A DNA stretch of 64,000 nucleotides, taken from Pseudomonadota bacterium (GTDB taxonomy: Bacteria; Pseudomonadota; Gammaproteobacteria; Burkholderiales; Sulfuriferulaceae). Numbering within the stretch: the first letter of the stretch is position 1; every line of letters begins with the position of its first letter. Location: assembly GCA_040388645.1 (NCBI GenBank), contig JAZKBM010000007.1, positions 160,942-224,941 of the forward strand, written 5' to 3'. This document shows, piece by piece, positions 35,858-37,510 of this stretch. The notes under the pieces are model-generated. The model was not told where the DNA came from. It made no database searches and saw nothing but the letters and a program-made list of their open reading frames with translations. Both the position numbers and the translations under genes were made by a program.

Positions 35858-37510
35858 GTGATCACCGGCGCACGTCAGGGTAAGCCCACTTGGCTAAACC
35901 GATTAATGGCTAGAGGCATGGCGCAAGATTTGCGTGCGATGATCGTGCCTGGAGTGGATTTGGCACGCGCACAAAATCTGGATGTCAGCGCCGCAGGCTT
36001 GCAGATTGCCGCCACGCCGCGTCATGCCAATGTACTGCTGGTGATTGGTCCGCTCTCGATAGAAATGCGGTCAGCCGCGGCTATTCTATATGCGCAGATG
36101 ATGCGTCCGCGTGCGATTTTAGCGCTCGGTAGCGGCGAACTCGCACCGTTACCGAAAGCCGACTGGCGTGCCGAGTTAAGCCAGCAGCACTTGCTCGAAG
36201 GTGTGGTTCAGCTCCGCAATGCGCTCATGGAGAGTGCTTTTCAATCCCATCCTGACGATTTCAAAGCGTCGATATTGGACGCTCACATCGAGTATACGTG
36301 TCCCATGCATCTGGAAGTTGTCCAGGATGCCCCCGGTTCCTGCCCAAAATGCGGCATGACCCTGATCCCGCGCGAAAGTGCTTCAGCTAATGAGTCCGGG
36401 CATGATCATAAGCAGCCGGATGAGGCGGACATGAAGCACGGTGACATGAAGCATGGTGACATGGATCACGGCGAGATGGACCACGGCGAGATGGGTTTCA
36501 TGTCCATGATCGAGGTTACCAAAGACCTGCCACGCAGTCCGGATGGCTTGCCGATGGACTGGTTGGACGTACCCTTTGGTCCCGTATTCCCTGGGCTGCC
36601 AGGCGGTTTGCTACTCACCCTGACGCTTGATGGGGATGCCGTTGCAAAGGTGCGTGTACAGTCGGTCGTCGGCGTAGGGGTTTCACTACCTGTAGGCGGG
36701 ATGAAAGCAGGTGAATTTGTTGAGCATTTGGCAATGCTTCATCCGCTTACCCCCATGGCCTATCGTGTGCTGGTCTGGCGCGCGCTGGAGGCAGCAAGCG
36801 GGCAGACCATGGATGTGGAAGTGTTGTATTGGCGCATGGCGGCGTTAGAGCGTGAACGCATTGCCAGTCATCTGGGCTGGCTGGCAATGCTGGGTTGGCA
36901 GATTGGCTTTGCGTGGCTAGAACGCCGTGCGGGAAAGATGCAACTCGAATGCCTGCGCGCGGAACTGCCGCAAATTATGTGCATGCGCCCAGATGTAGAA
37001 GCGCTGGTGGCTCGTTTGGCCCATACACCGTTCCTGCATTCCCGGCTTTCCGGTGTAGGAGTTATTGCACCCAACCCCGGCTTGCGAGGGCCGATAGCGC
37101 GGGCTACGGGTATGTGCTCTGATTTCCGCTTGACCGATGACACGTATCAATCTCTGAAATTTGAAGTAATGAATCGGAAAGGCGGGGACGCACTAGCGCG
37201 GTTACACATTCGACTCGATGAAATGTTGCAAAGCTTCGCACTTATCGAATCCGCAGGCGTTCTGAAAGAATCCGAATTTGTTGTTGCCAACACAAACACA
37301 GGAGAAGGTCACGCCAATGTCGAAACGCCGCGCGGTGAAGCCAGTCTGCATCTGACGTTGGAAAACGGCAGGGTGATGCAGGCGCATCTGGATACACCTT
37401 CAACTTTTCACTTGAGTCTGCTGCCCCAACTGCTTGCCCAGCAAGAGCTGGGAGATGCGCTCACGACCGTGTGTTCCCTTGATTTATCGCCGTGGGAGAT
37501 CGTGGCATGA
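35858..37510 (+). CDS. NuoB-like :: heavy-metal-binding domain :: His/Met-rich repeat :: NuoD-like fusion protein
   Basis: The start is GTG 35858, with GGAG 8 nt upstream, 1 nt after the nuoA-like stop. The NuoB-like segment reads [16 protein letters not shown]...ILALGSGE and contains no Cys. The metal-binding domain [24 protein letters not shown] spans 36293-36376. The repeat reads [22 protein letters not shown]. The NuoD-like segments are [24 protein letters not shown] and [31 protein letters not shown]. Confidence 0.75.
   Translation: [550 protein letters not shown]
36428..36502 (+). repeat. Tandem 15-bp coding repeat (four full copies plus one decayed copy) encoding (D/E)M(K/D)HG
   Basis: The units are gacatgaagcacggt, gacatgaagcatggt, gacatggatcacggc and gagatggaccacggc, followed by the decayed unit gagatgggtttcatg. 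They lie in frame inside the B/D fusion ORF. Confidence 0.85.

Follow-up and report, generated by a model that had tools for sequence, protein, structure and literature searches.

Within a 64,000-nucleotide stretch of DNA, referred to here as the window, from a Pseudomonadota bacterium of the Sulfuriferulaceae (GenBank assembly GCA_040388645.1, contig JAZKBM010000007.1, positions 160,942 to 224,941 of the forward strand), we analyzed a cassette of eight genes that resembles part of the nuo operon encoding complex I. Seven of these genes encode homologs of NuoA, NuoH, NuoJ, NuoK, NuoL, NuoM and NuoN, each recognized by Pfam, and the second gene encodes a protein in which a NuoB-like and a NuoD-like domain are joined, with a heavy-metal-binding domain (HMBD) between them (Table 1). 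From the sequences we predict that the eight products form a single membrane complex, denoted NuoA′, B′-HMBD-D′, NuoH′, J′, K′, L′, M′ and N′, of which the fusion protein would be the cytoplasmic cap.

The gene order A-(B′D′)-H-J-K-L-M-N fits all 85 loci collected, 51 of which contain all eight genes; besides the window, the order was seen in Thiogranum longum, a Marinobacter metagenome-assembled genome, two metagenome contigs and 80 further metagenome loci. No nuoC, nuoE, nuoF, nuoG or nuoI gene is present in the cassette of the window or of any of the 85 loci, and Pfam searches detected neither a 30-kDa nor a 2x[4Fe-4S] ferredoxin domain in the cassette. The gene content is consistent with an origin from a nuo operon that lost NuoC, E, F, G and I and in which NuoB became fused to NuoD.

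Table 1 Positions of the cassette genes, the parts of the fusion protein and the flanking genes in the window (aa, amino acids; AF2, AlphaFold model)
Feature	Position	Strand	Basis or remark
NuoA-like, 120 aa	35494–35856	+	Pfam Oxidored_q4, 82 bits
B′-HMBD-D′ fusion, predicted cytoplasmic cap	35858–37510	+	Pfam, AF2, Foldseek, family alignment
NuoB-fold domain, aa 1–135, Cys-free	35858–36262	+	Profile against PDB, AF2, Foldseek, Cys positions
HMBD (PF19335), aa 146–171	36293–36376	+	Pfam, 49.1 bits (cut-off 23.6)
His/Met/Asp-rich linker	36377–36496	+	Composition, tandem repeat
Family motif with FMSM..W, directly before the NuoD-like fold	36497–36562	+	Family alignment
Trimmed NuoD-fold domain	36563–37507	+	Pfam Complex1_49kDa, 75 bits; Foldseek; alignment
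NuoH-like	37507–38403	+	Pfam NADHdh, 190 bits
NuoJ-like	38400–38924	+	Pfam Oxidored_q3
NuoK-like	38914–39225	+	Pfam Oxidored_q2
NuoL-like antiporter subunit, 632 aa	39222–41120	+	Pfam, alignment
NuoM-like antiporter subunit	41150–42619	+	Alignment
NuoN-like antiporter subunit	42636–44021	+	Alignment
DUF4396 membrane protein, HCGSGC motif	34643–35347	+	Pfam DUF4396, 158 bits
ZIP-family metal transporter	46186–46980		Downstream of the cassette
Secreted spondin-domain protein	33372–34085	−	Upstream
GGDEF-EAL protein	30427–32760	−	Upstream
Flagellar/motility cluster (FlhA, FlhF, FliA-type sigma factor, MotA/MotB)	22712–30321		

The NuoB-HMBD-NuoD fusion protein

A first-pass annotation, made from the sequence alone, had read the second gene as a single continuous open reading frame of about 550 codons that encodes a NuoB::NuoD fusion with an inserted HMBD. 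Both statements were borne out: the frame runs unbroken from a GTG start at 35858 and encodes 550 residues, and Pfam, profile comparison, AlphaFold modeling and Foldseek agree on the three parts. The GTG at 35858 lies 1 nt past the stop of the nuoA-like gene. The earliest in-frame start codon of the frame is at 35810, and we take 35858 as the start because translation from there gives VITGARQGK, matching the MIxGARQGK with which the homologs of many organisms open. Public gene calls (P0001, of 530 aa, P0002 and P0008) begin the fusion at an internal Met; a start at Met21 (~35918) drops 20 conserved N-terminal residues, which need the GTG at 35858. For the NuoH-like gene, the earliest in-frame start codon is a GTG at 37492, and the likely start, ATG 37507, was inferred from the N-termini of homologs.

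The relationship of the N-terminal domain to NuoB is weak by Pfam, the Oxidored_q6 score of 18.4 bits falling under the cut-off of 27, and firm by profile and structure. A profile built from 31 family N-termini matches NDUFS7, MbhJ and NuoB in the PDB at E ~1e-8. The AlphaFold model of residues 1–135 has a predicted local distance difference test score (pLDDT) of 83.5, and its best 50 Foldseek matches are all NuoB/PSST/NdhK/MbhJ chains that cover the whole domain, with TMq values of 0.65–0.73. The HMMER alignment to NuoB/PSST ends at the MGS motif, just ahead of the position of the third cysteine ligand of Fe-S cluster N2, and the next residue in the window protein is Gly. The remaining three N2 positions were located in a manual alignment to E. 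coli NuoB, and the stretches corresponding to the CC pair and to GCPP contain neither Cys nor His. By these alignments the four Cys ligands of cluster N2 are absent from the B-like domain, as had been noted at first pass together with the lack of any cysteine in this part.

The assignment of the C-terminal part to NuoD also held. The AlphaFold model of the full cap protein (pLDDT 73) gave HycE and NuoD as top Foldseek matches, with E = 5e-16 and TMt up to 0.69. In an alignment of 121 D-like domains to E. coli NuoCD, for which an alignment to NdhH was also used, the quinone-site residues H220, H224 and Y273 are replaced by Phe, Pro and Leu, respectively, and the domain is shortened by several deletions. 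The E. coli sequence GPNHPSAHG becomes GP(V/F)FPGLPG in the family; both His of this loop are thus gone, in agreement with the first-pass annotation. That annotation had further stated that the HRGxEK segment bearing the quinone-binding Tyr was replaced. The segment (GYHHRGAEK in E. coli) is indeed lost and the Tyr is absent, but the Tyr does not belong to this segment: it lies ~20 residues downstream in the RxDY motif (RIEY273L in E. coli), where the family has Leu within (D/H)PL(A/T)P and the window protein reads LHPL.

The remaining negative statements made at first pass, that the protein has no NuoC-like domain and no [NiFe] CxxC pairs, were confirmed, the former by Pfam for the cap and by the loci for a nuoC gene in the cassette. 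The cap contains seven cysteines. Residues 148, 162 and 165 belong to the HMBD, and 365, 375, 420 and 539, in the D-like part, are unpaired; outside the HMBD no cysteine is conserved across the family alignment. As judged from its sequences, the complex lacks Fe-S cluster ligands of every kind, a flavin module and the quinone-site residues, and by itself it therefore cannot act as a redox enzyme.

The HMBD lies exactly where it had first been placed. The segment matches the N-terminal metal-binding domain of Legionella CopA (LpCopA; PDB 8OVL/3RFU), which by nuclear magnetic resonance holds Ag+, a stand-in for Cu+, through three sulfurs from M44, C59 and M61 (PMC11970713) and which its authors argued to be a copper sensor and not a delivery site (PMC11970713). 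The corresponding residues M150, C165 and M167 of the window protein form an intact Met-Cys-Met triad that is invariant in 27 family sequences. Among 120 homologs the number of HMBD copies ranges from 1 to 10, three being the commonest, and P0009 and P0104 carry ~10 or more. The four further HMBD genes examined elsewhere in the genomes all encode P-type ATPases in which the HMBD is N-terminal and beside a YHS domain; because of this placement we regard the HMBD as cytoplasmic. One metagenome cassette (L021), whose cap protein is P0104, has additional HMBDs in the membrane arm: its NuoJ, encoded at positions 13614–15071 of that locus, is 485 aa long and carries a Gly/His-rich tract and six HMBD repeats at its C-terminus. 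In E. coli the C-terminus of NuoJ is cytoplasmic.

The His/Met/Asp-rich tract that had been described after the HMBD is present and contains a 15-nt tandem repeat (36428–36494; TRF) encoding ~4 units of (D/E)M(K/D)HG, which we take to resemble the MDH-type copper-binding repeats of CopA/PcoA. Across the 120 homologs the linkers are rich in His (15.6%), Asp (13%), Gly (12%) and Met, and MxH is abundant. The Sulfuriferula homolog P0002 (86% identical) has many more copies of the 15-nt repeat, and hence linker length appears to vary by repeat slippage. The FMSM motif that follows the linker was found in 120 of the 120 homologs, its columns are invariant in the family alignment, and it is a candidate Cu(I) hand-over site.

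Distant members of the family, at 30–35% identity, have no HMBD (P0160, P0172, P0181, P0192, P0149, P0238, P0222 and P0259; loci L107 and L108). They keep the His/Asp/Gly-rich linker, an (F/L/M)MSM motif, the cassette and the Met-rich NuoJ and NuoK described below. P0259 is more divergent and its MSM motif is absent, and in L107 the NuoH region seems disrupted, with DUF3347 and Haem_bd genes downstream. Because the distant members without an HMBD keep both features, the Met-lined membrane module and FMSM form, on the evidence of the alignments, the family core, to which the HMBD is often added as an accessory. The proposal made at first pass, that a soft-metal-binding module has replaced the quinone-reducing interface, therefore stands as regards the metal domain and fails as regards replacement: the HMBD is inserted in the linker between the B-like and D-like folds, varies in copy number and is absent from distant members.

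Methionines at the E-channel of the membrane subunits

In complex I, the E-channel, which is made up of NuoH, NuoA, NuoJ helix 3 and NuoK, links the quinone site to the pumps, and NuoJ helix 3 is the helix with a π-bulge beside this channel. To compare these regions we aligned 42–64 non-identical family sequences per subunit to the E. coli proteins, whose numbering is used below. The residues that carry out proton pumping are kept in NuoL and NuoM. In NuoL, E144, D178, K229, H254, H338, K342, K399 and D400 are present in 46–47 of 47 sequences, and in NuoM, E144, K234, K265, H322, H348 and E407 are present in all 43; the proton-translocating machinery of these two subunits is, by this alignment, intact. 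NuoN retains K158, K217 and K247 in 42/42 sequences and K395 in 41/42. Closer to the channel, both NuoK glutamates, the Asp/Glu pair of NuoA and the loop between transmembrane helices (TM) 5 and 6 of NuoH are also kept. The conserved TM1-2 loop of NuoH (ERRLLGLFQNRYGPNRVG in E. coli) is deleted, and E157 of this subunit is replaced.

The E-channel subunits differ from their E. coli counterparts in a second respect, namely the number of methionines. NuoA, NuoH, NuoJ and NuoK together have 34 conserved-Met columns, only one of which is Met in E. coli, and in PDB alignments the E-channel methionines are absent from the T. thermophilus, Paracoccus and cyanobacterial sequences as well. The change is most extensive in NuoJ, where helix 3 and the loop after it have been remade as QIMMMATEMSIMAIFMVMFMMDPGGLGEMEMSHQ (38574–38675): the E. 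coli helix reads LEIIVYAGAIMVLFVFVVMML and that of the window protein QIMMMATEMSIMAIFMVMFMMDPGG, followed by a GEMEMSHQ loop, and the helix-3 glutamate is shifted by two turns (E55→Q, A62→E). This segment is at least 95% conserved, while the caps are only 45–55% identical, and its Met-rich character is kept even in the distant cassettes that lack an HMBD. NuoJ alone has 15 conserved-Met columns, one of them Met in E. coli, and NuoK has eight, none of which is Met in E. coli. New methionines stand beside the NuoK channel glutamates (VMIMMGVE, VMTVMALEM; VMTVMALEMAVG) and beside the NuoA Asp/Glu pair (FDMEMAFMYPW, 35707–35739), where V80, A82 and L85 of E. coli are Met in at least 80% of 64 family sequences. 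NuoH has new, near-invariant methionines near its carboxylates (AYSMLIVMPITAVAM).

The overall Met content shows the same distribution. It is 10.2% in the family versus 3.7% in E. coli for NuoJ and 9.4% versus 5.2% for NuoK, and it is 2.3% versus 5.1% for NuoL and 3.4% versus 5.4% for NuoM. The enrichment is specific to the E-channel module, NuoL and NuoM being poorer in Met than their E. coli counterparts.

A putative proton-driven exporter of Cu(I) and Ag(I)

We favor a reading in which the complex uses a complex I chassis to export Cu(I)/Ag(I) at the expense of the proton gradient, a proposal that we regard as evenly poised between right and wrong. The more specific claim, that it constitutes a new class of heavy-metal transporter, a complex I without redox chemistry in which Cu(I)/Ag(I) passes through the Met-lined E-channel coupled to proton flow through NuoL, NuoM and NuoN, falls, in our judgment, just short of an even prospect. 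Cytoplasmic Cu(I)/Ag(I) would be captured, or sensed, by the HMBDs and linkers and handed to a site composed of FMSM and the cytoplasmic TM3-4 loop of NuoJ (GEMEMSHQ). From there the ion would move along a thioether path provided by the Met/Glu cluster of NuoJ helix 3, NuoK, NuoA and NuoH, to be expelled to the periplasm, with inward proton flow via NuoL and NuoM, and possibly NuoN, supplying the energy. Overall, such a machine would resemble complex I run in reverse, the metal ion standing in for the quinone chemistry; it could equally be described as an Mrp antiporter for a soft monovalent cation. The tight buffering of cytoplasmic Cu(I) would demand a driving force like that of ATP, and several protons per Cu+ could give one comparable to ATP hydrolysis. 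In addition, or instead, the HMBDs might sense copper and so lift an autoinhibition, as has been proposed for LpCopA.

The first-pass annotation had suggested metal sensing or handling coupled to the antiporter-like arm. The invariant HMBD triad and the near-invariant E-channel methionines agree with this suggestion, as does the genomic context: at least one copper-homeostasis gene neighbors the cassette in 23 of the 44 non-redundant loci with at least 2 kb of coding flank (a raw count, given without a background frequency) and in both plasmid loci that were inspected.

Several observations weigh against export. The E-channel of complex I is not known to open to the periplasm, and a through-path for the ion across it is an assumption of the model. 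The region that would receive the metal, comprising the linker and FMSM, is modeled by AlphaFold with pLDDT below 50. The TM5 glutamate of NuoN (E. coli E133) is Leu, Val or Ser in all 42 sequences, which suggests that the coupling between NuoN and the NuoK/NuoJ module is altered relative to complex I. The presence of an HMBD does not prove transport, because the LpCopA domain was concluded to be a sensor and because members without an HMBD exist. In addition, approximately half of the loci, the window included, have no classical cop/cus gene within 10 kb. Finally, neither the direction of transport nor the metal specificity (Cu, Ag, possibly Hg or Au) can be read from sequence.

These points bear on the alternatives to different degrees. 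The complex might be a copper-gated device, that is, an Mrp-like Na+(K+)/H+ antiporter or a proton conduit that is switched by Cu(I) at the HMBD and linker with no metal crossing the membrane. Conservation of the pump residues and of both NuoK glutamates follows that seen in cation/proton antiporters, HMBD copy number is very variable, as in regulatory tails, and for LpCopA the HMBD was judged to act as a sensor and thereby to relieve autoinhibition (PMC11970713). We nonetheless consider gating unlikely, as it leaves unexplained ~34 near-invariant new Met positions at the E-channel, which are also found in the members without an HMBD, and the travel of the cassette in copper-resistance islands. 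Unlikely too, and if anything by a little more, is that the same machine drives Cu(I) uptake by the proton motive force, or delivers Cu(I) laterally to membrane or periplasmic cuproenzymes, with the HMBDs as receivers. Direction is not derivable from sequence, many hosts are cuproenzyme-rich sulfur oxidizers or marine aerobes, and multicopper oxidases, azurin/plastocyanin-type proteins and cytochrome c genes occur among the neighbors. However, the neighbors also form the classical resistance set (CopA/CopB, CusRS, CusAB, a P1B-ATPase and CsoR) and the cassette is plasmid-borne in metal islands, a context typical of detoxification; uptake down the membrane potential would have no need of three antiporter modules.

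The other explanations give the metal a smaller role or none. That the complex is a redox enzyme after all, its cap docking a separate oxidoreductase such as a flavoprotein resembling sulfide:quinone reductase or NDH-2, or a Rieske protein, while the arm pumps protons, strikes us as quite improbable. Complex I relatives often swap their electron-input modules (PMC4453560), Rieske genes lie near three loci, and in six of the eight loci (among 44) that have a Pyr_redox_2 flavoprotein gene, this gene lies 16–160 bp upstream of nuoA′ on the same strand. Yet a candidate partner is missing from most loci, the window included; the complex has no Fe-S chain for electrons, it retains neither the quinone-site His/His/Tyr nor the NuoH TM1-2 loop, and the HMBDs, the Met-rich channel and the copper context would all be left unexplained. 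We find it more improbable still that the assembly serves as a platform for copper buffering or chaperoning, with a membrane arm that only anchors it. Its HMBDs, up to 10 or more in number, and its long His-rich linkers would provide high binding capacity, but a mere anchor would require far less than seven membrane subunits in which the pump residues and the remodeled E-channel are strictly conserved. A decaying complex I operon, or an artefact of assembly or of a frameshift, could account for the loss of all redox motifs, and the distant locus L107 looks disrupted in its NuoH region. The possibility of an artefact had been raised at first pass. Conservation refutes this explanation, decay included, and leaves it virtually no probability: the fusion and the order of the genes recur in 85 independent loci, and the family numbers at least 935 protein clusters from different phyla, with many invariant columns.

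Comparison with known systems places the proposed exporter within the complex I/Mrp superfamily. It shares with complex I and NDH-1 the NuoA, H, J, K, L, M and N homologs in nuo order, the NuoB and NuoD folds in the cap, the NuoL/NuoM pump residues, the NuoK glutamates and the NuoH TM5-6 loop, and its best single PDB matches are the NDH-1 subunits NdhH and NdhE. It differs from complex I in having no N-module (NuoE, F, G), NuoC, NuoI, N2 ligands or quinone-site His/Tyr, and in having a deleted NuoH TM1-2 loop, a B-D fusion via HMBDs, a Met-lined NuoJ helix 3 with Met-lined neighbors, and a NuoN without its TM5 Glu. The NCBIfam collection has no model for the family, and against its complex I equivalogs every subunit falls well short of the cut-off (NuoD 87/360, NuoH 191/399, NuoJ 40/284, NuoL 375/556). 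On all of these counts (N-module, NuoC/NuoI, N2 and quinone ligands, cut-offs) we rejected identity as respiratory complex I. A group 4 [NiFe] hydrogenase (Mbh, Ech, FHL) was rejected because the CxxC pairs of the large subunit are absent, and an Mrp antiporter because NuoA, NuoH and the B/D cap are present, MrpE/F/G are not, and the order is that of nuo genes.

Mrp is probably, by analogy, the closest model for how the complex works. It likewise has no redox module and combines antiporter-like subunits with a small NuoK/NuoJ-homologous module, which in Mrp is thought to carry the non-proton cation. The substrate proposed here is a soft metal ion in place of Na+/K+, and the NuoL of the cassette scores higher on NuoL models than on MrpA models (NCBIfam). 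With the N-terminal domain of LpCopA (8OVL) the cap shares the HMBD itself, its Met/Cys/Met ligands, its cytoplasmic location and its attachment to a membrane transporter, other HMBDs encountered being carried by P1B-ATPases; here, however, the HMBD sits between two complex I cap domains, and once on NuoJ, and is repeated up to 10 or more times. Complex-I-type modules have been put to non-respiratory use elsewhere: cyanobacterial NDH-1MS (CupA/CupB) reportedly employs one for vectorial CO2 hydration, and DAB systems, with a single antiporter-like subunit, are another such module for CO2 hydration. Unlike the present family, NDH-1MS retains a quinone site and an Fe-S chain and is driven by redox chemistry, and neither system has metals as substrate. 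Ehr complexes are relatives of complex I and group 4 hydrogenases whose large subunit lacks the [NiFe] ligands (definition quoted in PMC6349859). They combine hydrogenase-like large and small subunits with Mrp-like ones. In the current view they still run on redox energy and require a partner that donates electrons (PMC6349859). Judged by motifs and gene order, the loss of catalytic ligands is the one trait shared with them; the family described here has a nuo-type arm and gene order, no Fe-S ligands, HMBDs, and no constant redox partner. In build the complex is closest to complex I/NDH-1 and in its working probably closest to Mrp, and there is a substantial chance that the family is a new functional class of metal transporter.

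Bacterial copper export has been ascribed to P1B-ATPases, to CusCBA-type pumps of the resistance-nodulation-division superfamily and to few others. A proton-motive-force-driven exporter assembled from complex I parts would, if the proposal is right, be a mechanistically unrelated class, and one carried by a cassette that is common in marine and sulfur-oxidizing bacteria and is plasmid-borne in metal-resistance islands. The central open question about complex I is by what means events at the quinone site act, via the E-channel, on the distant antiporter-like subunits, and a homolog that has no Fe-S clusters or quinone site and has its pumps intact may help to answer it. If the E-channel has indeed been re-lined for a heavy ion (Ag+, Cu+) that is visible by spectroscopy and cryo-electron microscopy, the complex would provide a simple system in which to ask whether this channel conducts ions and how it powers the pumps or is powered by them.

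Distribution and genomic neighborhood of the family

The first-pass annotation had called for a search for other B-HMBD-D fusions, and this search yielded at least 935 homologous protein clusters at 90% identity and 286 clusters at 50% identity (E ≤ 1e-30). The hosts include Sulfuriferula, Beta-, Gamma- and Alphaproteobacteria and the actinobacterium Rubrobacter; the Sulfuriferula homolog is 86% identical, and twelve plasmids carry the cassette. RefSeq labels the fusion as a 'heavy metal-binding domain-containing protein' and the other genes as NuoA/H/J/K/M/N, and such 'NADH-quinone oxidoreductase subunit A/H/J/K/M/N' labels inflate the respiratory capacity predicted for genomes and metagenomes. 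In the literature searched we found no description of a B-HMBD-D fusion or of a copper-linked nuo-like cassette; surveys of complex I mention only NuoBCD fusions and 'partial operons' (PMC4758237, PMC4453560).

To describe the surroundings of the cassette, the flanking open reading frames of 61 non-redundant loci were clustered and representatives annotated. Of the recurrent neighbors, a CusS-type kinase occurs in 10 loci, a CopA multicopper oxidase in nine, a response regulator and an HMA-bearing P1B-ATPase in eight each, CopB in six, and CusA, a CusB-type adaptor and CsoR in four each. On the Roseovarius indicus plasmid pRIdsm_02 the cassette adjoins genes for CopA and CopB together with those for an azurin-type protein and a CDF transporter. 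On a plasmid of Rubrobacter marinus it is surrounded by genes for a P-type ATPase, CsoR-type regulators and a four-helix-bundle copper storage protein, in an island that also contains multicopper oxidase fragments, DUF305 and DUF4396.

In the scanned parts of the window no classical cop/cus genes were seen. Apart from the DUF4396 gene, which precedes the cassette on the same strand, the neighbors there encode spondin-domain and GGDEF-EAL proteins, AsmA and a ZIP transporter (Table 1). The DUF4396 gene is located 146 bp upstream of nuoA′ and is outside the conserved eight-gene core; its product has no PDB or NCBIfam match and may be a metal-related accessory whose membership in the unit is uncertain. 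A search for operators upstream of the DUF4396 gene and of nuoA′ gave no convincing palindrome. A DUF4396 gene also stands at positions 26593–27363 of L105.

The Pyr_redox_2 flavoprotein mentioned above, of 394 aa, was found in L001 (8406–9590), L023, L025, L029, L031, L083, L088 and L095. Its best, though distant, PDB relatives are sulfide:quinone reductases and NDH-2, and it might act as a Cu(II) reductase or as a redox partner. Several other genes recur beside the cassette. DUF6629 was seen in two loci (L022, 21208–21894; L104, 12693–13379), and an ICMT/PEMT-type methyltransferase (L025, L033, L049, L078 and L089) and a fatty-acid cis/trans isomerase (L025, L045, L082, L086 and L088) in five loci each. 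A transporter of the amino-acid permease family is present in seven loci (L022, L049, L051, L052, L067, L073 and L089).

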